Assembly: GCA_964419695.1 (NCBI GenBank)
Contig: CAYQRT010000002.1
Span: forward strand, 1-29,725
Direction of reading: 5' to 3'
From: an uncultured Spirochaetaceae bacterium
GTDB taxonomy: Bacteria > Spirochaetota > Spirochaetia > SZUA-6 > RPPD01
DNA length: 29,725 nucleotides
Shown here: piece after piece, positions 1,960-29,725 of the stretch
Layout of the letters: every line of letters begins with the position of its first letter
Numbering within the stretch: position 1 is the stretch's first letter
Position numbers and translations under genes: made by a program
The notes under the pieces: generated by a model
Database searches by the model: none
The model's input: only the letters and a program-made list of their open reading frames with translations
What the model was told of the DNA's origin: nothing

Positions 1960-2070
1960 GTTTGTCCTCCCCGTCTGCGTTTCGAGATCCGTATTATGTG
2001 AGTGAAAAACGCCCCTGAATACGCGGACACCATAACGCGTTTTTTCCTTGAAGTTTATTTTGGCATATTG

Positions 2071-8489: not shown

Positions 8490-8498
8490 ATGCAATGC

Positions 8499-9089
8499 CT
8501 ACCCGAATATATTCTTTAAAATGGCCATATCAAAGGCCATAAAAGCCAGGGCCATCAATCCGGCGCTGATAAAGGCGATGGGCGCCCCGCGCAGGGCCTT
8601 GGGCACCTTGACCCGGTCGAGTTTTTCCCGGATGGATGACATGAGGATGATGGCCAGGGTAAAGCCCAGGCCGGCGGCGAATCCGGCCACCACGCTCTGG
8701 AGAATGCTGTATTCATTGTTCACGCAGATGAACGCGATGCCCAATACGGCGCAGTTGGTGGTGATCAGCGGCAGGTAGATGCCGAGCGCCTTGTATAATT
8801 CGGGCGAAATCTTGCGTATCACCATTTCCACGAACTGGACCAGAGCGGCAATGACGAGAATGAAGGTAATAATCTCAAGATACTCGATGTTGAGTGGATC
8901 GAGAATTTGTGTGTAGATGACCGAGGTAAAGAACGAGGACAGGGTCATGACAAACACCACGGCGAACCCCATGCCGACGGCGGAATCCATTTTTTTAGAA
9001 ACACCTATGAAGGGACATAACCCCAGGAACTGGGTGAAGATGAAATTATTGATGAACACGAAGGTGATGATGATGCCCACGTAGCTCAT
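8499..9089 (-). CDS. rnfA: Rnf complex subunit A
   Basis: FLGLCPFIGVSKK, LGIYLPLITTNCAVLG. Confidence 0.96.
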   Translation of the reverse strand: MSYVGIIITFVFINNFIFTQFLGLCPFIGVSKKMDSAVGMGFAVVFVMTLSSFFTSVIYTQILDPLNIEYLEIITFILVIAALVQFVEMVIRKISPELYKALGIYLPLITTNCAVLGIAFICVNNEYSILQSVVAGFAAGLGFTLAIILMSSIREKLDRVKVPKALRGAPIAFISAGLMALAFMAFDMAILKNIFG

Positions 9090-9793
9090 GAGGTCTTCTC
9101 CCTTCCCGCGGACGATCGCCTCCGCCCGGACAATAATGAAGCCAACGCGCGGATATCGGAGGAGACGCGCCGGCGGATGGACCCCGCCGCGTTAAACAGT
9201 CCCTTGAGAAAGCCGATGACGAGCAGGGCGCCGGCCGGCGCGGCCAGGACGGCGACGGGCGCCTGGGACAAACCCGGAATTTCCAGAATACCGTCCTCCA
9301 GTCCGGGGATGGGCAGGGGCACCAGGGTCAGGGTGCCGGCCCCCAGCGTTTCCCGAATGAAGGCGATCAGGCACAAGGCCAGGGTAAACCCCAGACTCAT
9401 GCCCAGGGCGTCCAGAACCGAGGGGCCCACGGCGTTCTTGCTGGCGAAGGCCTCGGCCCGACCGATGATGATGCAGTTGACCACCACCAATGGCAGGAAG
9501 ACGCCCAGGTTTTTGGCCAAGGCCGGAGTGAAGGCCTGCATGAGGAGATTGATGATGGTGACGAAAGCCGCGATGACTATGATGAAGGCCGGTATACGCA
9601 CCTTGTCGGGAATGAAATTCTTCAGCAATGAAACCACGATGTTCGATCCCAGAAGCACGAACGTAACCGCCGCTCCCATACCCAGGGCATTGATGAACTG
9701 GTTGGAGACCGCCAGCGTGGGACAAAGGCCGAGCATGATGATAAAGGTGGGATTTTCCTTGAAAATTCCCCTGGTAAAGTCCTTGAGCATCAT
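9086..9793 (-). CDS. rnfE: Rnf complex subunit E
   Basis: ENPTF..MLGLCPTLAVS, IPDKVRIP, LPLVVVNCIIIGRAEAFASKN. Confidence 0.96.
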   Translation of the reverse strand: MMLKDFTRGIFKENPTFIIMLGLCPTLAVSNQFINALGMGAAVTFVLLGSNIVVSLLKNFIPDKVRIPAFIIVIAAFVTIINLLMQAFTPALAKNLGVFLPLVVVNCIIIGRAEAFASKNAVGPSVLDALGMSLGFTLALCLIAFIRETLGAGTLTLVPLPIPGLEDGILEIPGLSQAPVAVLAAPAGALLVIGFLKGLFNAAGSIRRRVSSDIRALASLLSGRRRSSAGREKTS

Positions 9794-10551
9794 TCGCCTC
9801 CTTGGGCCATGACAAAGAGCGACCCTTCCTTGATCGCGGCCGCCACCGCCATAAAACTGATGCTGGCGCCGCTCACCGCGTCCGCCGATTTCCTGGAGAG
9901 CATGGCTTTGACCACGGGTACGCGGGCGCCGCGGGTGCCGCGGAAGTGGCGGTCATAATCCGGCGCTGAAATCATTTTGGTCTGCGCGGGGCTTTCCTCG
10001 GCGTGCAGCACCCGAAACGACCGTACGGTTCCGTCCGGTTCGTACGCGGCCACGATATCGATCTCTCCACCGTATCCCGAACCGGCCAACTCCAGGATGT
10101 ACCCGGAGATGGTTCCCCCGGATCGCAGGATATACCAGGCACGCACCTTATCCTTGCGTCCCCGATCGGTTTTCGCAAACACGCGGGAGAGCTGGCGGGC
10201 ATCATCCGGGGAGAAATCCGGGGCCAGGGCATGCGTGCCGCCGGTTTCAGGATAGTACCGCTCCAGGATCGAGCGGTCCGCAGCGGTGAGGCGCGGATTG
10301 TTCAGCAGCGCGTCCCAGGCAGTTTGTTCCAGCCGCAACGGAAAAGCCGCTTCACCCTGGCTGCGCACGGCATTACCGGACAGTTCGGCCAGGGCCTTGT
10401 TCTTCTCCCGCAATTTGTTTTCCTCGATCACGGGTGCGGTAATCAGGTTGACCAGGGCCAGAGCCAGAGCCACCCCGGCGCAGATGACCACGAGTCTGGC
10501 CACCGGTACGAGCAATTCCCGGATGGCTGGGGCGTCAAGCAGTTTTTTCAT
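9790..10551 (-). CDS. rnfG: Rnf complex subunit G (FMN-binding) with an internal insertion
   Basis: N-terminal TM (LALVNLITAPVIEEN), GSGYGGEI, DAVSGASIS flavinylation motif; position between rnfD and rnfE. Confidence 0.88.
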   Translation of the reverse strand: MKKLLDAPAIRELLVPVARLVVICAGVALALALVNLITAPVIEENKLREKNKALAELSGNAVRSQGEAAFPLRLEQTAWDALLNNPRLTAADRSILERYYPETGGTHALAPDFSPDDARQLSRVFAKTDRGRKDKVRAWYILRSGGTISGYILELAGSGYGGEIDIVAAYEPDGTVRSFRVLHAEESPAQTKMISAPDYDRHFRGTRGARVPVVKAMLSRKSADAVSGASISFMAVAAAIKEGSLFVMAQGGE

Positions 10552-11701
10552 GCTTCTTCCCTATGACCGCGCCGAAAATCTTAGGTTTTATGAAACGATC
10601 CATGAGCGGTACGAACATGTTCATAATGATGATGGACAACGAGACCCCTTCCGGAAGCGAACCGTAAAACCGAATGAGAAAGGTCAGCACGCCGGCCCCC
10701 ACGCCGAAGATGATCTTCCCCGTCCGGGAGAGGGGCGTGGTCACGTAGTCGGTGGCCATGAAAAACGCGCCGAATACGATTCCGCCGGTCAGAAGATGAA
10801 AGAAGACGTCGCCGGAAAACAGGCCGGAAGCGAAGCGCAGGCCGCCGAAAACCCAGACAAGTAGGGCGAAGCTTCCCAGGTAAGCGGCGGGGATTTCCCA
10901 AGAAATGATTTTCCTGATAAAGAGGAATAACGCCCCCAGCAGCAGCAGCAGCACCGACACTTCCCCGATGGAACCGGCCACGTTGCCGACCAGAAGGTCG
11001 ACGTAGCCCCTGGGCAGATGGCCGCCCAACAGGCCGTTCAGACCCTGCGTCACCTGGGAGTCGAATGCGGAGACAGGGTAGTGTTTAGACGCCAGCAGGG
11101 AAAGCGGGCCGCCCAAACCGTGCAGACGTGCGGAAAGAACGGACGGATCCCCGGCCTGGACGGCGACTTCCGCCAGACCGGCCTTGACTGTGCCCAGGGG
11201 AGAAGCACCGGTGACCGCGTCCGCCGCCGCCCCGGCTGCCCCCCAGGCGGGAAGCGTGGTCGGCATGGTCCAGGCGTTCATGGCCTTGGAAAAAGAAAAA
11301 AGGGCGAACACCCGGCCGGCCAGGGCCGGATTCATCCAGTTGGCGCCCAGGCCGCCGAAAGCGTGCTTAACCACGGCCAGGGCGAACACCGACGCGGCGA
11401 TGGGTACATAGACCGGAACGGCCGGCGGCAGGTTCAAACCGATGAGCAATCCGGTGAGAAAGGCGGAACCGTCCGTAATGGTGAGTTTACGGCGGACGGC
11501 ATTAACGGTGAGTTCGGTGGCCAGGGAGGCGCCGATGCAGATGAGGACGGTGATCAAGGCCTGCCAGCCGAACACGAACACGCCCCAGGCCAGGGCGGGC
11601 GTCAGACTTAAGGATACCGACCACATTATCGTGGCCGCGCGCGTGCCTTCGGCCAGATGCGGGGCGGGGGTGACCAGGAGGGGTCTCTTGGCCCGGTTCA
11701 T
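10535..11701 (-). CDS. rnfD: Rnf complex subunit D
   Basis: PAPHL, ITDGSAFLTGLL, KHAFGGLGANWMNPALAGR, GNVAGSIGE, GAFFMATDYVTTP. Start set to ATG 11701 (ATGA overlap with the rnfC stop), not 11815. Confidence 0.95.
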   Translation of the reverse strand: MNRAKRPLLVTPAPHLAEGTRAATIMWSVSLSLTPALAWGVFVFGWQALITVLICIGASLATELTVNAVRRKLTITDGSAFLTGLLIGLNLPPAVPVYVPIAASVFALAVVKHAFGGLGANWMNPALAGRVFALFSFSKAMNAWTMPTTLPAWGAAGAAADAVTGASPLGTVKAGLAEVAVQAGDPSVLSARLHGLGGPLSLLASKHYPVSAFDSQVTQGLNGLLGGHLPRGYVDLLVGNVAGSIGEVSVLLLLLGALFLFIRKIISWEIPAAYLGSFALLVWVFGGLRFASGLFSGDVFFHLLTGGIVFGAFFMATDYVTTPLSRTGKIIFGVGAGVLTFLIRFYGSLPEGVSLSIIIMNMFVPLMDRFIKPKIFGAVIGKKHEKTA

Positions 11702-13038
11702 GGGGCGGCCTTTCCCGACTGACGGAGGCGGGCCATGATCTTTCCCACTTTGAAGGAATGTACCAGGGGAATACGCGAGGGACAGACATAGGCGCAGCAG
11801 CCGCACTCCTTGCAATCCATGAGCCCTGATTGGAGGGCCTTCTCATACAGCCCGTATTCGATGAGGGTGAAGAGGATCGTGGGCAGGAGGCCCCAGGGGC
11901 AGACGTGTAGACAACGGCCGCAGCGGATGCAGGGCGTCCCTGCGTAGGGGGCGGTCTCTTTGCGCGAGAGGGCGACGATGCCCGATACGCCCTTGACCAG
12001 CGGCGTCTCCGGATCAGCCACGGCCAGCCCCATCATGGGTCCGCCTAAAACTATCTTGGCGGGCGGCTCGGAAAAACCGCCGCAATCCTCCAGCAGTTCG
12101 CCGATCTTGGTACCGATACGCGCCTTGATATTGGAGGGCTGGTGCAGCGCGCCTCCGGTGACCGTCACCACTCTTTCAATAAGCGGTTTGCGCCAGACCA
12201 CGGCCTCATACACCGCCAAGACGGTATGGACATTGGCCACCACCGCGCCCACGTCGAGCGGCAGCCCGCCGGAGGGCACCTCACGGTTGAGCACGGCCTT
12301 GAGAACCATCTTTTCATCACCCTGGGGATAACGCACCCGGAGGGACGTCACCGTAAAGGGCAGCTGTTTCTCCGTGATTTTTTCCGTGAGCACCTCGATG
12401 GCGTCCGGTTTGTTCTCCTCCACCGCGAATACGACCCGGTCGGCGCCCGTGATTTTTTGGATGATCTGCGCTCCCTCGACGATTTCATCCGGTTTCTCCA
12501 GCATCAACCGATGGTCGACCGTGAGGAAGGGCTCACATTCCACGCCGTTGATCACCAGCACCCCGATGGGTTTTTCACGACGTACCGTGTACTTGACGTG
12601 GGCGGGAAACGCCGCGCCGCCCAGACCCACCACACCCATATCGGCGATCAGCCCATTGAGCGTCTGGCCGTCCATGTTCTCCCAGGCCTGTTTTTCCAGG
12701 ATCTTCCCCGAGCGGTCGAATTCACCGGCGCATTCAATGGTGACCGCCCGGCAGACCACTCCCTGGGGAAGCATCATGTTTTTGACTTCCTTGACGCGAC
12801 CCGGTACCGGAGAGTGGATGTTGGCCGAAATGAATCCGGAGGCCCGGGCGATGAGCATTCCTTCCTTTACTTCGTCTCCGGGATTGACGAGACATTGCGC
12901 CGGTGCGCCCGTGTGCTGGGACAGGGGGATGACGGCCACCGCCGGGATATGAGCGTTTTTAATGGGCATCCGGGAAGTCCCTTCTTTTCTGTCGCGGGGA
13001 TGCACCCCTCCCCGACCGAATGTGCGGGAACCGTTCAT
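11698..13038 (-). CDS. rnfC: Rnf complex subunit C
   Basis: PLSQHTGAPA, HSPVPG, GVVGLGGAAFPAHVK, NGVECEPFLT, YPQGDEK, GGPMMG, CIRCGRCLHVCP, CKECGCCAYVCPS. Confidence 0.97.
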   Translation of the reverse strand: MNGSRTFGRGGVHPRDRKEGTSRMPIKNAHIPAVAVIPLSQHTGAPAQCLVNPGDEVKEGMLIARASGFISANIHSPVPGRVKEVKNMMLPQGVVCRAVTIECAGEFDRSGKILEKQAWENMDGQTLNGLIADMGVVGLGGAAFPAHVKYTVRREKPIGVLVINGVECEPFLTVDHRLMLEKPDEIVEGAQIIQKITGADRVVFAVEENKPDAIEVLTEKITEKQLPFTVTSLRVRYPQGDEKMVLKAVLNREVPSGGLPLDVGAVVANVHTVLAVYEAVVWRKPLIERVVTVTGGALHQPSNIKARIGTKIGELLEDCGGFSEPPAKIVLGGPMMGLAVADPETPLVKGVSGIVALSRKETAPYAGTPCIRCGRCLHVCPWGLLPTILFTLIEYGLYEKALQSGLMDCKECGCCAYVCPSRIPLVHSFKVGKIMARLRQSGKAAP

Positions 13039-14816
13039 GGCTTTCTCCCGGATGTTTTCTTTCTCTTCTGCACGCCTGCCTTCTTTGCGCCCCTGGATTT
13101 GGCTGGAGCCGCGGCACCCCGGCTCTTTGTGCGGCCGGACGTTTTCTTCTCCGCCGGTTTCCGCGCGGCGGGCGCCCGCGCCGGGACGGACGTGGTGATC
13201 GGCCTTTTTTTCCTGCCGTAAATCAAGCTGGGGAGTGCCGTGTACTCAAGCAGAATTACCGGACAGAGTACGATACTAAAGATGATGATGATTGTCCAGT
13301 TGGCCTGCGCCAGCGCGCCCGCCGGATCACCGTTGCGAAACGATACGGACAGACATTTTCCCTGGTCGAACAGCATTCGTTCCACTGATGTCCGGCTGAC
13401 CCGTCGCGCCAGGTCGTCCAGCCATTGGTCGCCGAAGGCGATCAGCGTTTGGCGGCTCTCCTTCACCGTGATATCCGGCTCGTTCATGCGGTAGGCGGCG
13501 AGGACGATGGCGTCGTTCCGGCCGGGAAGAGCATATGCGGGCGGGGCTCCGTACGCCAGCCGCTCCTGGTACGCGGCATGGGTCACAAAATCCGAAAGAT
13601 CCGGCAGGTCTCCCGGACGCTTGACCGCCGCCAGCCGTCGGACCGCCCCCAGGGTGATGCCTTGTTCCGCGGTACGGGCTTCAGGCACCGGCATACGCGT
13701 GTTCCTTACCTGCGGTTTAAAAAGGAGAACCGCCGGCATGAGGACGAGCAGGCCCACGGCCGCGGAAGGCGCCAGGCGCTGGCTGAACGTCCGGGCGGTT
13801 TTGGGGGCAAAGGAACGCAGAATGGTCAGGGGTTTGAATCGTGCCGGCCTTTCCAGTATGCTTCGTTCCTTGAGCAGGCGGAACAGCCGCAGGATTCCCC
13901 AATGGGCCGCCAGCAGTCCGCCCTGGGCCAACAGGGCCAGGGTGATTTCAAGCAGGTCCGATTTGAAAAGCGAGGTAAAAAAGAACGTCAGCAGAAGGAC
14001 CCCCGTATAGAGAACAAGACGAAGCCAGAGCGGTTTACGGTCCGAATCTTTCCAACCGGACAGTTCCCGGTTTTCCACGAAGTCCTGGTAGACATTAAGG
14101 AACCTTGCCCAATAGTAGCTTAAGAAAAAAAACAGGAGGAACTCCCCTATCCCACCCCTGGTCAACGCCAGCATCCAGGGGAGGACCCCCGCCCCGAACA
14201 GGATGTGAAAAGTCGTTTTACGCGATGCGAACATCAACGCCAAGAAAAAGAGCGCTCCGGCCGCGGCAATGATCACCGTGGTCTCATTGTTGTCGAGCTC
14301 GAGAATCCGCCAATTATCTTCGCGCTTTCCCGCCCAGTCCGTCATGAACAGCGAAAGCGACAGGGGATTGCGCCGGGTAGCCACATACAGGACATCCCAG
14401 GTTACGTTGTTTTCTTTCACCGTGAAATACTCATCCACGCGACGCATATAGTCGTCCCAACGGGGATCGCGAGGATCGAATCGTTCACTCACCCGTGATA
14501 GAGGCAGTGGCATGAGTGAATCAAAATTCGTATAGAGAATGTCAGCGGTCGCCCGTGAAATCACGGTTTCCACGTCCGGCTGCCGGAGCAGGGCGTCCGA
14601 CAGTTCCGCCAGGGGCCGGGGTCCCCGATAGTAAACGGTGTGGTAGCCTTTGAACCGGGAGGGTTTGGCGGAGGGCACGGCGAACAACAAATTGCCGCCC
14701 AACAACACGGCTACGCCTATCATGACCGCCGTGCGCATGACAGCGACCGGTTTTCTCTCGGGAGATTTTTTTCGTTTTTTCGCGGGGAGTGACTTCACGG
14801 GCGTGCTAGAGGACAC
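13035..14816 (-). CDS. Unknown polytopic membrane protein (about 8 TM segments, two soluble domains, Lys/Arg/Ala-rich tail)
   Basis: Long ORF overlapping the DUF212 stop and the rnfC start (ATGA); multiple hydrophobic segments. Start uncertain (GTG 14816 or ATG 14738). Confidence 0.8.
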   Translation of the reverse strand: MSSSTPVKSLPAKKRKKSPERKPVAVMRTAVMIGVAVLLGGNLLFAVPSAKPSRFKGYHTVYYRGPRPLAELSDALLRQPDVETVISRATADILYTNFDSLMPLPLSRVSERFDPRDPRWDDYMRRVDEYFTVKENNVTWDVLYVATRRNPLSLSLFMTDWAGKREDNWRILELDNNETTVIIAAAGALFFLALMFASRKTTFHILFGAGVLPWMLALTRGGIGEFLLFFFLSYYWARFLNVYQDFVENRELSGWKDSDRKPLWLRLVLYTGVLLLTFFFTSLFKSDLLEITLALLAQGGLLAAHWGILRLFRLLKERSILERPARFKPLTILRSFAPKTARTFSQRLAPSAAVGLLVLMPAVLLFKPQVRNTRMPVPEARTAEQGITLGAVRRLAAVKRPGDLPDLSDFVTHAAYQERLAYGAPPAYALPGRNDAIVLAAYRMNEPDITVKESRQTLIAFGDQWLDDLARRVSRTSVERMLFDQGKCLSVSFRNGDPAGALAQANWTIIIIFSIVLCPVILLEYTALPSLIYGRKKRPITTSVPARAPAARKPAEKKTSGRTKSRGAAAPAKSRGAKKAGVQKRKKTSGRKP

Positions 14817-15270: not shown

Positions 15271-15537
15271 AGCGCCTGTCTTTGCAATGATAATGATATG
15301 CCGTTCGGCGGGAGCATCCCCGGGATGTCTACCGCCGAAGGTCATATGGCCCCGGGCCGCTTTCTGAAAATGGCCAACGCCAGGCCGCCTGGCGCCTTTT
15401 TTCCGAAACCGTGTCCAGTTTCGCTTGAGTCGCCCAAATTGTCAAGACGTTCACGCCGGGGTGACGATTTCAGGAAGCGATTTCCAAGCGAGGCCGGAAA
15501 ACAGAGTATTGAGTGCGCCATTATTTTGTTTTTTTTA

Positions 15538-15565
15538 TTGACACGCCGACTTTTCCAGATAAAAT
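15538..15565 (+). promoter_or_regulatory. Sigma70 promoter for the mlaEFD-like operon
   Basis: TTGACA-16 nt-TAAAAT preceded by an AT-rich UP-like tract. Confidence 0.65.
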
Positions 15566-15575
15566 GAAGGCCAGC

Positions 15576-16364
15576 ATGAGCCAAATCCGCCAATCGGCCT
15601 CCAGAGAATGGGCGCACACCGCCAAAGCCATTCTATCCAGCTATCGTAATTTTTTCTTCTGGATTTTCCGCCGTCCCTTCAATTTCCGCCAGGTCATGGA
15701 ACAGTTTGCCCGTACTATGCTGGAGGGATTCCTGACCATCGTCATCGGGTCCGTGGTCATGGGCATGTTCATCGCCTGGATCGGCGGCTATTTCGGATCG
15801 CTTTACGGCGCCATCACCATCATCGGACCGGCCGCCACCTTCGGCATCATTCATGAGTTCACCATACTCCTGGTCGCCCTGCTCTTTGCCTGCCGCGTGG
15901 GCACGGCCTTTACCGTGGAAATCGGGTCCATGGCCATGAGCGGGCAATTGGACGCCCAGCGTATGATGGCCGTGGAGCCGATCCAGAATATCGTCATTCC
16001 ACGGGTAGTGGCCTCCCTGGTGAGCATCATGCTTCTCCTGGCCATCTCCCACGGCATCGCCCTGCTCGCCTCCGCCTTCTTTCTCCAGATGTGGTTCAAT
16101 ATCACCTTCGCCGCCATTTTTGAGAACGCCTTCGCCTTCATCAAACCGGGCACCATCATTCAGTCCTTTGTACGGGTGGGCGTCATGGGCTTTTTCATCG
16201 CCCTTAACGCCTGCGCCGTCGGCTTCTACTTCTCAGGCGGGGCCGTGGAACTGGGCAAGGCCACCACCAAGTCCATCGTGGTCAACTTCATCTACGTGCT
16301 GCTCATCCACCTGGCCACGGCCATCCTGGTCACCTACAGCCGCTGGTTTATGGATACGCTATGA
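15576..16364 (+). CDS. mlaE: MlaE-family ABC transporter permease
   Basis: LLFACRVGTAFTVEIGSMAMSGQLDAQRMMAVEP.Q.IVIPR, GAVELGKATTKSIV. Start set downstream of the promoter (ATG 15576; ATG 15564 is an alternative). Confidence 0.88.
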   Translation: MSQIRQSASREWAHTAKAILSSYRNFFFWIFRRPFNFRQVMEQFARTMLEGFLTIVIGSVVMGMFIAWIGGYFGSLYGAITIIGPAATFGIIHEFTILLVALLFACRVGTAFTVEIGSMAMSGQLDAQRMMAVEPIQNIVIPRVVASLVSIMLLLAISHGIALLASAFFLQMWFNITFAAIFENAFAFIKPGTIIQSFVRVGVMGFFIALNACAVGFYFSGGAVELGKATTKSIVVNFIYVLLIHLATAILVTYSRWFMDTL

Positions 16365-17113
16365 TACGAATTGCGAACCTTTCCAAATCATTTGAAGACA
16401 ACCGCGTTCTGGAACATATCTCGGTTGAGATCGCCGATGCCGATTCATTCGTCATCGTGGGGAAAAGCGGTATCGGCAAATCCGTGTTCCTCAAATGCAT
16501 CACCCGGCTTATCAAGCCCGACGATGGACAAGTCTTCATCGACGATGAGGACATTGTCTCGGCCCGGCGGGAGGACCTGCTGCGCATCCGACGCAAGATC
16601 GGTCTGGTGCTGCAGGAAGGGGCCCTTTTCGATTCCATGAACGTGTATGAAAACATCGCCTTTCCCCTCATCTATCACAATCTGCTGCCACGCCAGGAAA
16701 TTGAGAAGAAAGTGAGGCATTACCTGGAGGTGGTGGAAATGCCCGAATTCGGCGAAGCCATGCCCTCCGAGTTATCCGGCGGCATGAAACGCAAGGTCTC
16801 CCTGGCGCGGGCCATGGTCCTGGAGCCCAAATACCTGTTGTACGACGAACCCACCTCGGGTCTGGATCCCATGAGCGCCGGCATTGTTGAATCGCTTATC
16901 ATGAAGCTGCAGCGGGAGATGAACATCACGTCCCTGGTCGTGACGCATGACCTGGACCTGGCCCACTACGCGGGCTCGCACATCGCCCTTCTGGACAAGG
17001 GTCAGCTGGTCGCCATCGAGACCAAGGATCAGGCCTTTGCCAAGGAATCTCCCATCTATGAGTATTTCATCCAAAACAGAGAAAGGGTGCACCACAACCA
17101 TGGCAACATCTAA
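16361..17113 (+). CDS. mlaF: MlaF/Ttg2A-family ABC ATPase
   Basis: Walker A GKSGIGKS, QEGALFDSMNVYENIAFPL, LSGGMKRKV, YDEPTSGLDP, VTHD. Confidence 0.93.
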   Translation: MIRIANLSKSFEDNRVLEHISVEIADADSFVIVGKSGIGKSVFLKCITRLIKPDDGQVFIDDEDIVSARREDLLRIRRKIGLVLQEGALFDSMNVYENIAFPLIYHNLLPRQEIEKKVRHYLEVVEMPEFGEAMPSELSGGMKRKVSLARAMVLEPKYLLYDEPTSGLDPMSAGIVESLIMKLQREMNITSLVVTHDLDLAHYAGSHIALLDKGQLVAIETKDQAFAKESPIYEYFIQNRERVHHNHGNI

Positions 17114-17951
17114 GCGACAGATCGTCAAAGTCATCGGCATCTCCCTGCTGGCCGTTCTCACCACCGTTTTTCTGTTCCTCATGATCTTCAAGGTGCAGAT
17201 TTTCACGGGACCCTATTTTTACATCCGCTTCGAACACGTGGGATCCCTGACCGTGGGCGCCGTGGTCCGCACCGCCGGCGTGCGCATCGGCACGGTCTCG
17301 GACATAAAAATCGACCAGAACGACTACCGGACCGTCATCGTCACGGTGACCCTCTACCCGGGCCAGAAAGTGCGCCGGGGGTCGGGTTTTATCGTCATGT
17401 CCGGCAGCCTGATCGGCGACCAGTACATTGAGGTCATCCCCAATCCGGAAGGTGAATTCATAACCGACGGCGAGACATTCAAGGGCGAACCGATCAAGAA
17501 CCTGGATTCGTTTCTACTCTCCAGCGACACGCTCATCAAAGATTTCACCTCGGCCATGAGCACATTGGCCGACATTCTGGCGGAGAACAAGGACGATATT
17601 CGCGCCGTGATCGCCAATCTCAAAGAGTCGTCCGACACCCTGCGCGCGTACATGAGCGACAAAGCCGGCACCGACGGTTCAGTGCTATCCAAACTCTCCC
17701 GGCTTCTTGACAACCTGGACCGTTCCTCCACGGCTCTTACCGCGCTTCTGGAGGACCTGACGTCCAAGGATTCCGTGGTCTCCCTTCTCAACCAGAAGGA
17801 AACGGCCTCGGATATGAAGGTAACGCTGGCCAACCTGCGCAAAATCTCCAGCGGGCTCGTCAACATCACCAACGACCTGGAAACCATCATGTCCGGCGTG
17901 GTCGGGTCCTCGACCGAATCGGGCGCCCCCTCCGATGGCGATAAAAAATGA
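17100..17951 (+). CDS. mlaD: MlaD/MCE-domain protein with a helical C-terminal extension
   Basis: TM anchor, then FEHVGSLTVGAVVRTAGVRIGTVSDI and SLIGDQYIEVIP. Start set to ATG 17100 (MATSKRQ). Confidence 0.9.
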   Translation: MATSKRQIVKVIGISLLAVLTTVFLFLMIFKVQIFTGPYFYIRFEHVGSLTVGAVVRTAGVRIGTVSDIKIDQNDYRTVIVTVTLYPGQKVRRGSGFIVMSGSLIGDQYIEVIPNPEGEFITDGETFKGEPIKNLDSFLLSSDTLIKDFTSAMSTLADILAENKDDIRAVIANLKESSDTLRAYMSDKAGTDGSVLSKLSRLLDNLDRSSTALTALLEDLTSKDSVVSLLNQKETASDMKVTLANLRKISSGLVNITNDLETIMSGVVGSSTESGAPSDGDKK

Positions 17952-23414: not shown

Positions 23415-25493
23415 ATGGGTTACGCAACCTCTTCCATCCGGAATATCGTCTTGTGCGGACACGGCAGCACCGGTAAAACGACGCTGACCGAACAGATGTT
23501 GTTTACCGGGGGCGTCATTCCCAAAGCCGAACCGGTCGAAACCGGCAAATCGGTCAGCGATTACACCGAGCAGGAAATAGCCCGCAAGGTTTCGATCCAT
23601 ACCTCCCTTTCCCACCTTGATTATCACGGCGTCAAAATAAACATCCTCGACACTCCCGGCATCGCCGACTTTGTGGGCGAGGCCGTGGCCGCCTTCCGCG
23701 CCGCCGAGGCCGCCGTGGTGCTGGTGGGAGCCGATACCGGGGTGCAGATCGAAACGGTCAAGATCTGGCGCCGCCTTTCCAAGATTTCCTACCCGCGCGT
23801 TATTTTCATCAACAAGATGGAAAAGGAGCACGCCGATTTTGATAAAGCCCTGGAAGACCTGCGCGCCAAATTTTCGGGCACCTTTGTTCCCGTTTCCATT
23901 CCCGTGGGCAAGGGTGCCGGGTTCAAAGGCGTCATCGATTTGTTGTCCATGAAGGCGTCGGTGTCCGGTGACGATAAAAAATCAGCCTCGGAGGCTGTTC
24001 CGGCCGACATGGCCGAGGCGGCCAAGAAATACCGCGACGTTCTCGTGGAAGCGGCCGCCGAGGGTGACGACAAGCTCATTGAGAAATTCTTCGCCAAAGG
24101 CACGCTCGCCGACGAAGAGATCCTGACCGGCCTCAGAAAAGCGGTGCACAGCGGAAAAATATTCCCCGTGCTCTGCGGCGCGGCCGTGGACAACAAGGGC
24201 GTGGCCACACTGTTGGATTTCATCGTCACCGCCTGTCCCCCGCCGCATGGTGAGGCCAAGGGGAAGGACATCAAAGAACAGGAAGTGGCGCGCGCCTGCG
24301 ACCCCGCCCAACCCCTGTCGTGTTTCGTGTTCAAGACGAGCATCGACCAGTTCTCGGGACGTATGTCTTTCGTCAAGGTGCTTTCCGGCACGCTGACGCC
24401 GGACTGCGACCTGGTAAACGTCCGCGGAGAGAAAAAGGAAAAATCTGGCAAACTGCACTGCCTGGTCGGAAAGAAAATCGACGACGTCTCCGAACTTGCC
24501 GCGGGCGATATCGGCGTGATGTTGAAACTGGCCACCGTCAACACCAATGACACCCTCTGCGCTCCGGACGCCCTCATCTGTTATGAACCGCTGGCGTTAC
24601 CCCAGCCCGTGCACGCGGTGGCCATCTCCGCGGTGTCCAAAAAGGACGAAGACAAACTCAACCAGATCCTGCATCGCGCCGCCGAAGAAGATCTTACCTT
24701 CAAGCTGGCGTTCAACACTGAAACCAAGGAGACCGTGGTCTCCTGCATGGGCGAACTGCATCTTTCCATCGTCCTGGACCACATTAAGGAAAAACAAAAA
24801 ATTGAGATTGAAACGAGTATCCCCAAAGTGGCTTACCGCGAAACGCTGCAAGCCGCTTCGGCCGCGGAATACACCCACAAAAAGCAGACGGGCGGCCACG
24901 GACAGTACGCCAAAGTGGTGCTGGAGATCAACCCACTCAAGCGGGGAGACCAGTTCAGCTTTGTCAATGCCGTGTTCGGCGGGGCCGTTTCCAAGGGCTA
25001 TATGGCCGGCATAGAAAAAGGCATTTTGGAGGGCATGGAGCACGGTTTTCTGGCCGGGTATCCCATCGTCGATCTGGAGGCCAAAGTGGTGGACGGCAAG
25101 GAACATCCGGTGGATTCGTCGGAAATGGCCTTCAAGCTGGCCGCCCGCGGCGCCCTGAAAGCAGCCATGGACAAGGCCAAACCGGTCCTGCTCGAACCCG
25201 TCATGAACCTGATCGTGTACGCGGACGAGCAGTATCTGGGAGACGTCCTGTCCGACATCTCCAGCCGGCGCGGCAAGGTGCAGGGTCAGGAACCCATCGG
25301 CGGCGGCATCCTCGAGGTACGCGCCCAGGTGCCCCAGGCCGAGCTGCTGCGCTACTCCATTGACCTGAAGGCCATGACATCCGGCACCGCCTCGTTTGAA
25401 ATGGAATTCGACCATTACAGCCCGATCACGGGCAAGATCGCGGATGACGTGATCAAAGCCTCCCAGGCCGCCAAGGAAGAGGCGCACGCCTGA
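23415..25493 (+). CDS. fusA: Elongation factor G paralogue (EF-G II type)
   Basis: GHGSTGKTT, DTPGIADF, NKME, GELHL, VAYRET, KKQTGGHGQYA, HPVDSSEMAF, LLEPVM. Switch I reads RKVSI instead of canonical RGITI; AAGGAG RBS. Confidence 0.92.
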   Translation: MGYATSSIRNIVLCGHGSTGKTTLTEQMLFTGGVIPKAEPVETGKSVSDYTEQEIARKVSIHTSLSHLDYHGVKINILDTPGIADFVGEAVAAFRAAEAAVVLVGADTGVQIETVKIWRRLSKISYPRVIFINKMEKEHADFDKALEDLRAKFSGTFVPVSIPVGKGAGFKGVIDLLSMKASVSGDDKKSASEAVPADMAEAAKKYRDVLVEAAAEGDDKLIEKFFAKGTLADEEILTGLRKAVHSGKIFPVLCGAAVDNKGVATLLDFIVTACPPPHGEAKGKDIKEQEVARACDPAQPLSCFVFKTSIDQFSGRMSFVKVLSGTLTPDCDLVNVRGEKKEKSGKLHCLVGKKIDDVSELAAGDIGVMLKLATVNTNDTLCAPDALICYEPLALPQPVHAVAISAVSKKDEDKLNQILHRAAEEDLTFKLAFNTETKETVVSCMGELHLSIVLDHIKEKQKIEIETSIPKVAYRETLQAASAAEYTHKKQTGGHGQYAKVVLEINPLKRGDQFSFVNAVFGGAVSKGYMAGIEKGILEGMEHGFLAGYPIVDLEAKVVDGKEHPVDSSEMAFKLAARGALKAAMDKAKPVLLEPVMNLIVYADEQYLGDVLSDISSRRGKVQGQEPIGGGILEVRAQVPQAELLRYSIDLKAMTSGTASFEMEFDHYSPITGKIADDVIKASQAAKEEAHA

Positions 25494-25553
25494 CAAAAGC
25501 CGAGATAGGTCTTCGTGGCGTCCCGGTGAGGTTTTTAAGTTCCGGAAAGTGAT

Positions 25554-26564
25554 TCAACAGATTCGCGGCAGCATGTCCGCCAGCAGCATGTCCACAATGC
25601 GCGTGCCGCCCGCCCGGGTCTTAAGGAAAACGCGGCAGAGGGGATCATCGGTCACGGTGCCTATGATATCGGCGCGGGCGCCCAGTTCCTGATTCCGCAT
25701 TGTCTCCAGCACGTCCGCGGCCACGCCCTGCTCGCAAACCACGATTACCTTGCCTTCATTGGCCAGATAGAGCGGATCAAATCCGGTCAACTCGCAGATG
25801 GCCCTCACCTCGTCCCGCACCGGCAGCGCTTCTTCCTCAATTTCCAACGACAACCGGGAACCTTGAGCCAACTCCACCAGGGTGGTGGCCACACCGCCGC
25901 GGGTGGGATCGCGCATCACCCTGATCGATCCCGGCGGAAAATGATCTACAATCCTTTTTATCAGGGGCCAGAGCGGGGCGCAGTCGCTCTGCACGTCGAA
26001 ATCGATGGGGAAATCCCCGCGCGCCTTCATGACCGCGGCGGCGTGGTCTCCCAGGGTGCCGGAGATAATTACGGCGTCGCCGCTCTTCATGGCCAGCGGT
26101 GAGAGACCCGCGTGCGCCCCCGGAAAGCCCACGCCGGCGGTGGTGATGAAGATTCCGTCCGCCTGCCCCCGGGGCACCACTTTGGTATCCCCGGTAACCA
26201 CCGTCACGCCCGTTTCTCCGGCCGTTCGCGCCAGGGAAGAGACGATCGTCTTCAGGTCTCTGAGGGAAAACCCCTCTTCGATGATGAATCCGGCGGAGAG
26301 ATACCGCGGTTCCGCGGCGCAGACCGACAGGTCATTGACTGTTCCCGCCGCGGAAAGTTTTCCGATATCCCCTCCCGGGAAAAAGACGGGACGGATCACG
26401 TACCCGTCGGTGGTAAAAGCCAGCTTTCCACCGCGGCTTTCCACCAGGGCGCTGTCCAGGAGGTCGGACAGGGAGCGATTGTCGAACGCGGGCACGAAGA
26501 CTTCCTCCACCAGCCGGTGGGTGGCGGAGCCGCCATTGCCGTGTTCGAGTTTTATGATGTCCAT
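25554..26564 (-). CDS. hypE: Hydrogenase maturation carbamoyl dehydratase HypE
   Basis: HGNGG, FTTDGYV..P.FFPGGDIGKL, GTVNDL, GDTKVV, MRDPTRGG, DPLYLANEG, C-terminal PRIC. Start set to ATG 26564 (AGGAAGG RBS). Confidence 0.96.
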   Translation of the reverse strand: MDIIKLEHGNGGSATHRLVEEVFVPAFDNRSLSDLLDSALVESRGGKLAFTTDGYVIRPVFFPGGDIGKLSAAGTVNDLSVCAAEPRYLSAGFIIEEGFSLRDLKTIVSSLARTAGETGVTVVTGDTKVVPRGQADGIFITTAGVGFPGAHAGLSPLAMKSGDAVIISGTLGDHAAAVMKARGDFPIDFDVQSDCAPLWPLIKRIVDHFPPGSIRVMRDPTRGGVATTLVELAQGSRLSLEIEEEALPVRDEVRAICELTGFDPLYLANEGKVIVVCEQGVAADVLETMRNQELGARADIIGTVTDDPLCRVFLKTRAGGTRIVDMLLADMLPRIC

Positions 26565-26721
26565 ACCTTCCTGCATAACGCCTGCCTTCTTAAGGGATAG
26601 TGTCCGGGGCCGGACTGCGGGGGGCCCGCTCTCCCGCCTCCCCCGCGCGCCGCCGATGACCGCCCCAGTATGCTTGCGTGTTCCGGTTGTCAAGCTTAAG
26701 GTGCAGGGAGGGTCGAGCCGT

Positions 26722-27651
26722 TCATGTCCCCTCAATCACGACCAGTCCGCCCAGACGGCGTGGATCGATTTCCACGGTGCGTACCAGCGCCTTCAGCTGG
26801 GCCAGCGGAAAGGCGGCGTCTTTGACGAACTCGCCGCCGATCTGCCAGAAGGGGCTTTCCTTAACGATCCAGCGAATGACGGCGCAGAACACCAGGGAGC
26901 TCTTTATTCCCCCCACCGATTCGATGCTGATGGAGATGATCTCCCCTTTGTCCAGGTGATCCTTCTCCAACAAGAGGAGTTTCATGCCCTCGGTCGAAAT
27001 GTCGACCAGGTACGCGTCCACCGAATTATTAATGATCACCTTGGTAAAGATGCTGTGCCTCTGATCCCTGTTCACGAAGGCGGCCTGAGCGCCGGCGCCG
27101 TCCGTCCGTCCCCCCCCGTCGGCGTCCAGCCGTTTGGCCGCCGTTATCCTGGTGCCGCACACGCTGCCTTCTCCCTGCCAGACGGTCTCTCGGCCGTCCC
27201 GGTCTATGAAGACCAAATGGAAGGCGTCCAGCGCCATTTTGGCCGAAACCAATCCAATGCCGAAACGGTTATAGGCGTGGCGTTCACGGTACGCTTGAAA
27301 TTCGGCCGAGGTAATATCGATTTTTTCCGAATCGTCATTGATATTTATCGGTAGTTTCCCCAGATCGAATCCCCCGGCCTGATCCGTGACCACGATCTTC
27401 AAGTAATTCCCCTTGACCGACAATTCGACGATCACCTGCTGCTCCACCAGGCGCTCATGGAGCGCCCTGACCGAATTGGTCACCAGCTCCGTCAGGGCGT
27501 ACTTGAGCAGGATGTTTTCCGATTCCTTGACCGGAAAATCAACCAGCTCAAGAATCTTGAAAAAATCGGCTCCATTAAGCCGGGGTGAGAAATGGATGCT
27601 CAGGTTCTGATAGCAATTGCCTTTGTAGACGATGTAATTCATATGATCCAC
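26722..27651 (-). CDS. HATPase_c (RsbW/anti-sigma kinase-like) domain fused to a C-terminal PilZ-like domain
   Basis: N-box ELVTNS, G1 DQAGGFD, G2 RFGIGL; then RDQR…LVDISTEG and VIRW…IGGEF. Start GTG 27651 or ATG 27642. Confidence 0.78.
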   Translation of the reverse strand: MDHMNYIVYKGNCYQNLSIHFSPRLNGADFFKILELVDFPVKESENILLKYALTELVTNSVRALHERLVEQQVIVELSVKGNYLKIVVTDQAGGFDLGKLPININDDSEKIDITSAEFQAYRERHAYNRFGIGLVSAKMALDAFHLVFIDRDGRETVWQGEGSVCGTRITAAKRLDADGGGRTDGAGAQAAFVNRDQRHSIFTKVIINNSVDAYLVDISTEGMKLLLLEKDHLDKGEIISISIESVGGIKSSLVFCAVIRWIVKESPFWQIGGEFVKDAAFPLAQLKALVRTVEIDPRRLGGLVVIEGT

Positions 27652-27656
27652 AGTGA

Positions 27657-27678
27657 AGTATAGTGATAAATTTCAAAA
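27657..27678 (-). promoter_or_regulatory. -10 box (TATACT) overlapped by a Rex/Crp-Fnr-like palindrome
   Basis: Plus 27661-27678 TAGTGATAAATTTCAAAA; minus-strand TATACT at 27657-27662. Confidence 0.4.
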
Positions 27679-27692
27679 TGAAAAGGACGATT

Positions 27693-28817
27693 TTACCGGG
27701 AGTCATTCCCGCGGTGCGGGGCGGACGGCGTGGATCCGTAACGGAAATGAATCCCGCAGGCACCCTCGGCGCTGACCATGCAGGCTCCCAGGGGCCGTTC
27801 CGGAGAGCATTCCCGCCTGAAAAGCGGACATGACGGCGGATCAAGCCGGCCGCGCATCACGTCGCCGCAGCGGCATCCGGGCGGTTCGGCGGCCGCGGGC
27901 AGGGAGAGGGGGAATTTTCTCCCGGCGTCATAGGAAGCGTACCGCTCGGCGCAGATTAACCCGCTCCCGGGTATGACCCCCAGCCCCCGCCAGGAGGCGT
28001 CGGCCGACCGGAAGACCTCGGCCACCGCCTGGCGGGCCACGGTGTTGCCGTCCGGGGTTACGGCCCTGGTGTACTGTATTTCGGTTTCCGCCCGTCCGGC
28101 CACGGTCTGTTTGAGGAGCAGCAGAACCGAACTGAGCATGTCCGTGGGTTCAAATCCGGAAACCACGCAAGGCAGGCGGAAAGACGACACAAAGTGGTCA
28201 TACATGCGCGCCCCGGCCACCGCGGTGACGTGGCCCGGACAGATGAATCCGTGGAGGCCGATCGATTGCCCGTCCACCAGCGCCGCCATGGCCGCGGGCA
28301 TGGTTTTCAAGGCGGTGAGAACGCTGAAGTTGGCCAGGTTCCGTTCCCCGGCCGTCAGGATGGCCATGGCCACGGTGGGCGCCGTGGTCTCAAACCCGAT
28401 CCCCAGGAAGACGACCTCCTTTTCAGGTGAACGCGCGGCCATCTCCACCGCCTCCAACGGAGAGAGGCAGACACGCACGTCCCGGCCGGCGGACCGGGCT
28501 TCAAGCAGGTTGCCCGCGGTGCCCGGCACCTTGAGCATGTCGCCGAAACTGGCGACGACCGTATCCTCGCGGCCGGACAGCGCCACGGCCGCGTCTATAT
28601 AGTCCTGCGTGGTGACGCACACCGGACAACCGGGGCCGCTTTTCAGACGAAGGTTCTCCGGCAGTAGGCCGTGCAGGCCGTACCGAACGGCGGTCAGCGT
28701 GTGACCGCCGCAAATTTCCATGTAGGAGACGGGCTCCCGCGGCATGAGCGAGCGTATCTCTTCAGCCAGGAACAGCGCCGCCTTTTTATCACGGAATTCA
28801 TCGACAAACCGTATCAC
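27693..28817 (-). CDS. hypD: Hydrogenase maturation protein HypD
   Basis: MEICGGHT, GPGCPVC, GIGFETTAP, PGHV, C-terminal CRCGDV…C.LF…C…P.GACMVSAEGAC. Confidence 0.97.
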   Translation of the reverse strand: MIRFVDEFRDKKAALFLAEEIRSLMPREPVSYMEICGGHTLTAVRYGLHGLLPENLRLKSGPGCPVCVTTQDYIDAAVALSGREDTVVASFGDMLKVPGTAGNLLEARSAGRDVRVCLSPLEAVEMAARSPEKEVVFLGIGFETTAPTVAMAILTAGERNLANFSVLTALKTMPAAMAALVDGQSIGLHGFICPGHVTAVAGARMYDHFVSSFRLPCVVSGFEPTDMLSSVLLLLKQTVAGRAETEIQYTRAVTPDGNTVARQAVAEVFRSADASWRGLGVIPGSGLICAERYASYDAGRKFPLSLPAAAEPPGCRCGDVMRGRLDPPSCPLFRRECSPERPLGACMVSAEGACGIHFRYGSTPSAPHRGNDSR

Positions 28818-29050
28818 GTATTCTCCGATTCCCGGCTCAGGGAATCCATCTCATGAAACAGCCGCAACGTTTCCTCCGCATCGCGCACGTCCAGTTTCTG
28901 GATGGCGAATCCGGCGTGCACCAGCACGTAGTCTCCGACCGCCGCGTCGGGCAGCAAACGGAAGCTGGCCGGATAGCGCACGCCGCCCGATTCCACCGTG
29001 CCGCTTTCCCCGTCACGGATGAGTATTTTCATGGGTACCGCCAGACACAT
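28814..29050 (-). CDS. hypC: Hydrogenase maturation chaperone HypC
   Basis: MCLAVP, VGDYVLVHAGFAI; GGAGG RBS. Confidence 0.97.
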   Translation of the reverse strand: MCLAVPMKILIRDGESGTVESGGVRYPASFRLLPDAAVGDYVLVHAGFAIQKLDVRDAEETLRLFHEMDSLSRESENT

Positions 29051-29725
29051 CAGTTCCTCCTTCGTTCACCCAGGCTGGCGGCCGCCACCGCGGCCTGTCC
29101 CAGGGAGATGCCGCCGTCATTGCAGGGAACCCGGGTGTGAACCACGGGGATTAATCCTGCGGCTTCCAGGCCGTGCATCATTCGCTCCAATAGCAATTTG
29201 TTTAAAAAGCAACCGCCGCTCAACACCACCCGGGTGTGCCCGCGTTCCCGCGCCGCGGCCACGGCTGTTTCTGTCATCACCTGAGCCAATCCGGCGTGAA
29301 AACGGGCGGCGATAGCGGATACCGGCCGTCGGGACTGAAGATCCGCCACCGCCTGCCTGATCGCATGTTTCCAATCAATCCGCCGCAGTCCGTCCCGGGT
29401 TGTGACGGGGAATTCGTATCCTTTTTCATCAGTCCGCCGGTCGGCGCATTGCTCGAACATGACGGCCGGCTGGCCCTCGTAGCGGGTGTCAAGACAGACG
29501 CCGGCCAGGGCGGAGAAGGCGTCGAAGAGCCGGCCGCACCCGGACGTGAGGGGCAATCCCGTGCCGTGTTCCAACTGGTGGACGGTCACCCGGCGCTTTA
29601 TTGAAGGAATCCGCGCCAAAGCCGGTGACAGGTGTTCCTCCCAGTCGCGCCCGAAGGTCGCATGCACACAGGACAGGCTCATGCGCCAGGGTTCGCGTAC
29701 GGCCAGTTCTCCGCCGGGCATGGCC
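29050..29725 (-). CDS. hypF: Carbamoyltransferase HypF, 3' part (starts beyond the right edge)
   Basis: REPWR, TSGCGRLFDA, YEGQPA, IAARFH, LSGGCFLN, VPCNDGGISLGQ. Confidence 0.95.
   Translation of the reverse strand, partial: AMPGGELAVREPWRMSLSCVHATFGRDWEEHLSPALARIPSIKRRVTVHQLEHGTGLPLTSGCGRLFDAFSALAGVCLDTRYEGQPAVMFEQCADRRTDEKGYEFPVTTRDGLRRIDWKHAIRQAVADLQSRRPVSAIAARFHAGLAQVMTETAVAAARERGHTRVVLSGGCFLNKLLLERMMHGLEAAGLIPVVHTRVPCNDGGISLGQAAVAAASLGERRRN

Follow-up and report, generated by a model that had tools for sequence, protein, structure and literature searches.

In a 29,725-nucleotide stretch of DNA from an uncultured Spirochaetaceae bacterium (GenBank assembly GCA_964419695.1, contig CAYQRT010000002.1; the whole stretch analyzed is called the window here), a gene that we call X lies between hypD and hypE in a [NiFe]-hydrogenase maturation (hyp) cluster and encodes a predicted fusion of a kinase-like GHKL domain and a PilZ domain. 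By sequence, X represents a rare, apparently spirochete-restricted module of PilZ plus a kinase-like domain that in one lineage is now a fixed member of the hyp operon. The link of X to hyp genes is well supported. We propose that X regulates the Hyp machinery as a kinase-like, ATP-dependent protein that is dedicated to this operon and controlled through its PilZ domain, and we give this whole model a probability of roughly 50%; the binding of cyclic di-GMP (c-di-GMP), the kinase activity, the target, and the direction of control are elements that we infer from sequence.

The minus-strand open reading frame (ORF) at 26722-27651 encodes 309 amino acids if read from a GTG. Because the 13 homologues first found all begin with MNY or MHY at an ATG three codons inside that ORF, gene X is most likely 26722-27642, with 306 amino acids. 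On account of these full-length homologues (E 1e-86 to 1e-160) and a GC content at third codon positions (GC3) of 0.74, compared with 0.73 to 0.79 in neighboring genes, X is a real gene and not a chance ORF; the same GC3 agreement rules out a recent horizontal insertion. The first-pass annotation, made from the letters of the window, had placed X between hypD and hypE on the same strand, and Pfam matches to HypD upstream and to AIRS/AIRS_C downstream bear this out. The same-strand order, from upstream to downstream, is hypF (3' part), hypC, hypD, X, hypE, and the genes beside X are bona fide HypC, HypD, HypE, and HypF. X itself had no match to any of the six Hyp families (HypA to HypF) in Pfam or NCBIfam. 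The features of this region are as follows.

29050 to 29725, minus strand: 3' part of hypF, continuing past the window end (Pfam HypF_C_2, E 7e-60).
28814 to 29050, minus strand: hypC (Pfam HupF_HypC, E 3e-24).
27693 to 28817, minus strand: hypD (Pfam HypD PF01924, E 6e-135), with CGHT, GPGCPVC, GFETT, and CPGHV motifs present.
27643 to 27692, minus strand: hypD-X spacer, 50 nt, AT-rich, with one weak sigma-70-like match, TTTTCA-16-TATACT (a consensus match only).
26722 to 27642, minus strand: gene X, encoding the 306-residue GHKL-linker-PilZ protein (ORF, homologue starts, Pfam, AlphaFold2 model); the alternative GTG start at 27651 adds three residues.
26722 to 26724, minus strand: stop codon of gene X.
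26577 to 26721, minus strand: X-hypE spacer, 145 nt, GC-rich, with no Rfam match and no terminator-like site.
25554 to 26576, minus strand: hypE, 340 amino acids from the ATG at 26576 (Pfam AIRS and AIRS_C; C-terminal PRIC motif).

Neither the hypD-X nor the X-hypE spacer of the window has a terminator-like site. An Rfam E-value scan of 25000-29725 returned nothing relevant and the X-hypE spacers of five loci do not align with one another, so that a riboswitch or other RNA element in the spacers was rejected. A role in anti-phage defense was also set aside, with no PADLOC match for X. HypE homologues in related loci have 337 to 347 amino acids. The source organism is a spirochete from salt-marsh sediment; among metagenomes, those from salt marshes represent the window sequence best, with up to 42% of sampled words.

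A word-indexed search of 5.8 billion proteins for full-length homologues of X returned only the 13 sequences mentioned above, at 50 to 78% identity, from spirochete metagenome-assembled genomes (MAGs); a search seeded with basal clade members recovered a further group, that of P0015, at ~37% identity to the window protein. Synteny with hyp genes had been set beforehand as the test on which the reading of X as a hyp-linked protein could fail. The fused orthologue was directly upstream of hypE in 12 of 12 distinct neighborhoods read (37 to 69% identity to the window protein) and between hypD and hypE in 11 of them. The order hypD-X-hypE occurred in L001/L002, L003, L006/L007, L008, L009, and L010 and also around the more distant P0206 (L012/L013), and a metagenome scan yielded L044, with a 45%-identical copy of X, as its sole new hyp-linked locus. 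In the exception (P0013; L004/L005), an ankyrin-repeat gene takes the place of hypD upstream and rpsL-rpsG-tuf lie downstream, yet the X-hypE adjacency is kept. In the P0015 group (L047 and L048/L049), the cluster reads small subunit, large subunit, hycI, hypA, and hypB, then a GAF-GGDEF-EAL gene that faces the other way, then hypF, hypC, hypD, X, and hypE; the genes downstream of hypE are quite different from those of the other loci. The outer flanks vary throughout, with EF-G, esterase or methyltransferase genes, or rpsL downstream and hydrogenase genes or AraC/DUF4349 upstream, and because they are reshuffled in this way, the linkage of X to hyp genes is more than one inherited block. Across loci, the identity of X to the window protein (42 to 69%) compares with 55 to 65% for HypD, 51 to 65% for HypE, and 72 to 89% for EF-G; X is thus as conserved as HypD and HypE. 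The spacing between X and hypE is 0 to 14 nt in L012, L009, and L047 and up to ~285 nt elsewhere; the X-hypE spacers of five loci fail to align, and long spacers are unconserved. The hydrogenase beside X is closest to sulfhydrogenase (group 3b) subunits, with scores below the equivalog cut-offs.

Two other genes in these loci are recorded here. The ankyrin-repeat protein of the P0013 organism (L005 3-896, plus strand; 8 repeats, E 1e-78), directly upstream of X-hypE, belongs to a class of repeats that is uncommon in bacteria. Between hypD and X in one P0206 assembly is a 111-amino-acid ORF that has no Pfam family (L013 7552-7887, plus strand) and is uncalled in the other assembly (L012).

The two halves of X and their motifs map to the window as follows, with residues numbered from the ATG.

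27127 to 27642, minus strand: GHKL (Bergerat-fold) ATP-binding domain, residues 1-172 (Pfam, NCBIfam, Foldseek, profile against PDB).
27475 to 27489, minus strand: N box ELVTN (E52, N56), invariant in 14 fused and 40 split relatives and aligned to the N boxes of PDK and RsbW.
27370 to 27384, minus strand: G1 box DQAGG (D87, G90, G91); D, G, and G are invariant, and most relatives have DxGGG.
27250 to 27261, minus strand: G2 box GIGL (G128, G130), with invariant R126-F127 just before it.
27151 to 27156, minus strand: G3 box GT (G163, T164), invariant.
27073 to 27126, minus strand: Gly/Ala-rich linker between the two domains, residues 173-190, which differs in length and sequence from one homologue to another.
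26725 to 27072, minus strand: PilZ domain, residues 191-306, with a beta-barrel, a C-terminal helix, and a conserved terminal strand, GLVVIEGT.
27058 to 27072, minus strand: degenerate RxxxR motif NRDQR, residues 191-195; N191 replaces the first Arg, and R192 and R195 are kept.
26986 to 27003, minus strand: DxSxxG motif DISTEG (D214, S216, G219), residues 214-219; D, S, and G do not vary in the family alignment.

The GHKL half is predicted to have a complete nucleotide site of the kinase type. No variation occurs at D87, G90, G91, G128, G130, G163, or T164 in the fused family or in 40 split relatives. As in SpoIIAB, a strand, a helix, and the N-box helix follow one another; X adds to this an N-terminal beta-hairpin and an ATP-lid that is long and conserved (LPxxIN...FQxYRExH..RFGIGL). 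In an AlphaFold2 model of X built on the family alignment and numbered over 309 residues, the mean predicted local distance difference test score (pLDDT) was 83.5 (~90 in the GHKL core) and the predicted template modeling score (pTM) was 0.82; ~40 residues, a beta-hairpin and a short helix, lie ahead of the N-box helix, as in SpoIIAB. The window protein matched HATPase_c and reached 26.7 bits against HATPase_c_2, slightly below the 27.4 cut-off, while the distant fused relative P0216 scored above it (38 bits) and stand-alone GHKL relatives have precomputed HATPase_c_2 matches. Both the PilZ and the HATPase_c_2 models were matched by 14/14 family members. Pfam found no HisKA/DHp-type His-phosphoacceptor and no sensor domain in X, and the absence of DHp/HisKA in Pfam and in the AlphaFold2 model rules out a sensor histidine kinase. 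The first-pass annotation had described a GHKL domain with N, G1, and G2 boxes and no phosphoacceptor or sensor domain, a description that Pfam, the alignment, and the model confirm and to which the G3 box is now added.

Searches against PDB place this half near known protein kinases. In Foldseek, the N half of the model, an alpha/beta sandwich, aligned with RsbW and SpoIIAB (template modeling scores on target of 0.71 and 0.61 to 0.65, respectively) and also with PDK/BCKDK. A profile of the fused family against PDB sequences had RsbW as its sole match (E 0.11), whereas the profile of stand-alone relatives, the more informative of the two, recovered PDK4, PDK1, RsbW, and BCKDK over the N box and G1 box (E 3e-5 to 7e-4). 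From these hits, the nearest characterized proteins are all GHKL-superfamily protein Ser kinases. RsbW and SpoIIAB (HATPase_c_2; PDB 6M36/6M37, 1TIL, and 1L0O) are, like X, small GHKL proteins without a DHp/His domain; they share the strand-helix-N-box-helix start and the N, G1, G2, and G3 boxes and are the best fold match. In comparison, X alone has the PilZ fusion, the N-terminal beta-hairpin, and the long conserved ATP-lid insert, is encoded in a hyp operon with no STAS or sigma gene nearby, and falls far below the equivalog cut-offs (NCBIfam spIIAB and RsbW, 18 to 22 bits versus 135 to 155). Because the equivalog models failed and a STAS/sigma gene context is missing, we liken the GHKL half to RsbW/SpoIIAB and PDK/BCKDK, as a probable distant relative, but do not class it as an anti-sigma factor. 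The mitochondrial-type PDK/BCKDK enzymes, the best profile matches to relatives of X from the N box to the G1 box (EL.NN..RA...D.GGG; E 3e-5), are GHKL protein Ser kinases that act on a metabolic enzyme and not on a STAS protein. In the PDKs, a large regulatory domain of four helices occupies the N-terminal part and lipoyl domains serve for docking; X has neither feature.

The linker is predicted to be disordered (pLDDT <50 at 178-195 of the 309-residue model) and leads into a domain that matched Pfam PilZ (PF07238) at 24.9 bits, above the 22.5 cut-off. Foldseek aligned the C half with the c-di-GMP-bound PilZ domains of YcgR, MotI, PP4397, VCA0042, and Alg44, and the model places the C-terminal PilZ helix of X at 283-295. 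The receptors YcgR, MotI/DgrA, Alg44, PP4397, and PA4608 share with X the beta-barrel, the C-terminal helix, and DxSxxG, and with most of its orthologues RxxxR as well; their partner domain is YcgR-N, a glycosyltransferase, or similar, while in X it is the kinase-like GHKL domain. The window protein also departs from them in having lost the first RxxxR Arg and in the short spacing of 19 residues from RxxxR to DxSxxG. A Gly/Ala linker followed by a PilZ-like domain, with DISTEG intact and NRDQR altered, had been read from the letters, and both the order and the motifs held. The first Arg is replaced only in the window protein (N), P0001 (N), P0002 (S), and P0013 (K), and the N/S substitution is confined to the subclade of the window; most hyp-linked orthologues have a canonical RRxxR or RKxxR. 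The PilZ half is a PF07238 member that in the window protein lacks one of the two ligand motifs; in the ancestor and in most orthologues of today, the domain carries both motifs for c-di-GMP binding.

It is possible, if on the unlikely side, that in the subclade of the window PilZ is a protein adaptor that does not bind c-di-GMP, in the manner of the non-binding orphan PilZ proteins of Xanthomonas, and that X is an accessory factor for Hyp that works constitutively or responds to ATP/ADP alone; such a reading would be compatible with our model for the rest of the family. The N or S at the first RxxxR Arg in the three closest sequences (N in the window protein and P0001, S in P0002) would fit such an adaptor, as would a Pfam PilZ match that begins at profile position 20, past the RxxxR region, and a PilZ half that evolves faster than the GHKL half (31 to 64% versus 49 to 77% identity across loci). 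On the other hand, R192, R195, and the complete DxSxxG are invariant, the remaining PilZ domain is well conserved in the subclade (78% overall identity), and the canonical motif is kept in most orthologues.

The GAF-GGDEF-EAL gene between hypB and hypF in the P0015 subclade (L047 3096-5081, minus strand; L048 and L049 3161-5140, minus strand), the deepest of the X subclades (37% identity to the window protein), independently supports a tie to c-di-GMP. It carries SGDEF, ECL, DDFG, KIAG, and QG signatures, with SGDEF and ECL as variants, so that at least the EAL half looks catalytic.

X has a wider and mostly unfused family. An exhaustive profile search of 1.84 billion representative proteins gave only 116 matches, most of them stand-alone proteins of ~175 amino acids that match the GHKL half (E 1e-20 to 1e-41); the remainder include PilZ proteins of ~105 to 130 amino acids that resemble the C half of X. 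A GHKL-then-PilZ gene pair of Spirochaetota was found at L011 6001-7869, L014 6001-6844, and L015 to L039 at ~6000-6900. The 175-residue GHKL gene overlaps the start of the ~108-residue PilZ gene in two complete-genome loci, a ~108-residue PilZ gene follows immediately downstream in 25 of 25 stand-alone GHKL loci from GTDB genomes (often with a 4- to 11-nt overlap), and the same order recurs in two partial metagenome loci, L045 and L046. The GTDB split-pair loci, which come from a search with a narrow alignment biased toward close Spirochaetota, are all from that phylum (Oceanispirochaeta, Salinispira, and Spirochaetaceae MAGs). The split pair has a homologous GHKL domain (E 1e-22 to 1e-34) and PilZ in the same order as in X and is translationally coupled. 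It differs from X in being two separate proteins, nearly always divergent from a ~1000-amino-acid TPR protein that has no other recognizable domain, and in the loci read it had no hyp genes within 6 kb. The split PilZ partners carry canonical RxxxR and (D/N)xSxxG. The split module appears to be uncharacterized.

A neighbor-joining tree of the GHKL domain placed all hyp-linked proteins with P0014, P0015, and P0016 in one clade, while the fused groups P0018/23/215/216/217 and P0030/37 were nested separately among split forms; the fused P0216 (L041) is not adjacent to hyp genes. Because the fused groups fall separately among split forms, the GHKL-PilZ fusion arose at least three times independently; X is a fused paralogue or offshoot of the split Spirochaetota module. 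Repeated fusion is a Rosetta-stone argument for joint action of the GHKL and PilZ parts, and the two-domain model, with its pTM of 0.82, suggests that the domains pack in a defined way. The GHKL-PilZ architecture is tied to hyp operons in the orthologous fused clade but is not unique to them, since the split pair and other, independently fused forms lie outside hyp clusters. Near split or fused GHKL-PilZ genes, three unrelated loci also have an ORF of ~750 to 770 amino acids that has no Pfam family (L033 7386-9647, L036 7407-9716, and L041 3-2300, all plus strand).

This ancestry bears on whether X is a classical partner-switching component, that is, an anti-sigma factor or a Ser kinase whose partner, a STAS antagonist or sigma factor, is encoded elsewhere and which controls transcription of hydrogenase, hyp, or other genes, with no direct action on Hyp proteins. 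The nearest characterized relatives by sequence and fold are RsbW and SpoIIAB, and in Oceanispirochaeta-type loci, the split pair is followed by a STAS anti-sigma antagonist (TIGR00377, E 7e-26), a second RsbW-like gene, and an HD-domain gene, a continuation that was absent from the other split-pair loci examined. Partner-switching genes are normally clustered, yet no STAS, sigma-factor, or PP2C gene was found in the window or in any hyp-linked locus read, and the window has no STAS, sigma-factor, TPR-protein, or GGDEF partner by Pfam on all ORFs of at least 150 amino acids or by phmmer on six-frame translations. The NCBIfam equivalog scores are also far under their cut-offs (22 versus 135). 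Since no STAS protein or sigma factor is nearby, classical partner switching is not indicated at the X locus, and we regard it as unlikely. The RsbW/SpoIIAB-type reading given at first pass thus survives as a domain type and loses its partner-switching context.

In the model that we favor, the PilZ domain of X would sense c-di-GMP, and in the subclade of the window, where the first RxxxR Arg is lost, its binding may be weak, or the domain may provide no more than a surface for protein contacts. PilZ would then alter the activity or the partner affinity of the tethered GHKL domain, which might either phosphorylate a Hyp protein or bind one in an ATP-dependent manner, as SpoIIAB binds its partners. 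HypE would be the first candidate target because X stays next to hypE even where another gene takes the place of hypD. In this way, synthesis of the cyanide ligand and the Fe(CN)2CO cofactor would be tuned after translation, and with it the maturation of the neighboring sulfhydrogenase-like (group 3b-like) hydrogenase. The combination of domains and context suggests that [NiFe] hydrogenase assembly may be tied to c-di-GMP. The more specific parts of this scheme are doubtful on present grounds: a kinase that acts on a Hyp protein has a rather low probability, and we would give about as little weight to X being a c-di-GMP-gated Ser/Thr kinase or ATP-dependent clamp that directly modifies or sequesters HypE (or HypD).

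Conceptual analogues exist. c-di-GMP controls histidine kinases in HapZ-SagS of Pseudomonas aeruginosa and in CckA and ShkA of Caulobacter. In these systems and in RsiG, as proposed for X, c-di-GMP modulates a GHKL kinase or an anti-sigma factor via a bound receptor surface; in comparison, HapZ-SagS, CckA, and ShkA are histidine kinases, RsiG is a non-GHKL helical anti-sigma factor, and none is known to be a PilZ-GHKL Ser-kinase-like fusion or to be linked to metallocenter assembly. RsiG-sigma WhiG of Streptomyces, in which c-di-GMP controls an anti-sigma factor (PMC7005675), is likewise an analogue in concept only. A survey of PilZ domains (bioRxiv 10.1101/814665) mentions the PilZ-containing Hanks-type Ser/Thr kinase Pkn1 and no GHKL fusion. 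The genes for the known regulators and accessory factors HoxJ/HoxA/HoxBC (H2 sensing), FhlA/HycA, and HypX lie, like X, in or beside hydrogenase or hyp clusters, and their products adjust how much hydrogenase is made. These factors comprise two-component or sigma-54 systems that act on transcription and an enzyme for the CO ligand, and to our knowledge, none of them contains a PilZ or RsbW-like domain. In the literature searched, we found no link of PilZ or c-di-GMP to hydrogenase maturation and no description of a PilZ-GHKL architecture, in agreement with the earlier remark that no such regulator was known in hyp operons.

Several points weigh against our proposal. The N or S at the first RxxxR Arg in the window protein and its two closest relatives may mean that c-di-GMP binding is weak or lost, and the HATPase_c_2 match of the window protein is marginally under the gathering score. 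The split paralogues are not hyp-linked, and their STAS and RsbW-like neighbors in Oceanispirochaeta-type loci point to classical partner switching as the probable ancestral role of the family. The GGDEF-EAL gene shares the cluster in one subclade only, in two genomes that are ~78% identical, and the hyp-linked examples all come from one phylum. Evidence of expression is limited to a single 151-nt rhizosphere metatranscriptome contig that covers window positions 27481-27631, in the 5' part of X, at 96% identity and for which DNA carry-over is possible. We know of no Hyp protein that is a kinase substrate, and none has a STAS fold. The functional model as a whole is built on sequence and a predicted structure.

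The restriction to one phylum would also suit a passenger, i.e., a general c-di-GMP gene, unrelated to hydrogenase (serving, e.g., motility or biofilm), that entered the hypD-hypE interval of an ancestor and was kept by vertical descent. The split paralogues are never near hyp genes, and in several loci the X-hypE spacer is long (145 to 285 nt) and unconserved, so that co-regulation with hypE is not needed everywhere. We nevertheless consider a passenger quite improbable: the linkage holds from 78% to 37% identity despite reshuffled flanks and even where hypD is not adjacent, spacing as tight as 0 to 14 nt implies that X and hypE are co-translated in several loci, the constraint on X equals that on HypD and HypE, and a GGDEF-EAL gene was recruited into the same cluster in one subclade. 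Least probable is an ATP-driven assembly or chaperone component acting on the large subunit or the HypCD scaffold, for although the GHKL superfamily includes ATPase clamps such as Hsp90 and MutL and the X gene sits among enzymes of an ATP/GTP-consuming assembly line, X (172 amino acids plus PilZ) has no transducer domain of the kind needed by GyrB/MutL/Hsp90-type ATPases, its best sequence and fold matches are protein kinases and not clamps, and Hyp systems elsewhere function without an X-like factor.

[NiFe]-hydrogenase maturation by HypA to HypF is seen as a constitutive assembly line that is regulated mainly via transcription, and we know of no second-messenger input to it. If X is a c-di-GMP-gated Ser/Thr kinase or an ATP-dependent clamp acting directly on HypE or HypD, it would be the first post-translational checkpoint on assembly of the [NiFe] cofactor (Fe(CN)2CO) and the first case of a nucleotide second messenger that controls metallocenter biogenesis, and the split GHKL and PilZ pairs would stand for a wider class of Ser kinases in Spirochaetota, regulated by PilZ and so far undescribed. 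X offers a concrete handle on post-translational control of hydrogenase assembly, and in sediment spirochetes such control might couple H2 metabolism to the sessile or motile state or to the redox state. PilZ with an RsbW-like GHKL domain, split and fused, would also represent a new effector architecture for c-di-GMP and possibly a new input domain for partner switching.

The rest of the window holds a complete operon for an Rnf-type ion-translocating ferredoxin:NAD oxidoreductase (7677-13038, minus strand; order rnfC, D, G, E, A, B), which fits an anaerobic, ferredoxin- and H2-based energy metabolism. Three ORFs that have no Pfam family lie at 13035-14816 (minus strand, 593 amino acids), 4094-5341 (plus strand, 415 amino acids), and 2167-2844 (minus strand, 225 amino acids); the first immediately precedes rnfC, on its strand, and carries a hydrophobic stretch at the N terminus. 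A 668-amino-acid GH57 family alpha-amylase/4-alpha-glucanotransferase-like gene is at 5408-7414 (minus strand), and an Mla-like lipid ABC transport set (MlaE permease, ABC ATPase, and MlaD) is at 15513-17951 (plus strand). The plus-strand ORFs in window positions 1-2000 (52-672, 673-1485, and 1522-2001), with Arg/Gly/Pro-rich translations and 59 to 64% GC, look like shadow ORFs, and the real gene may be on the other strand or beyond the window start.

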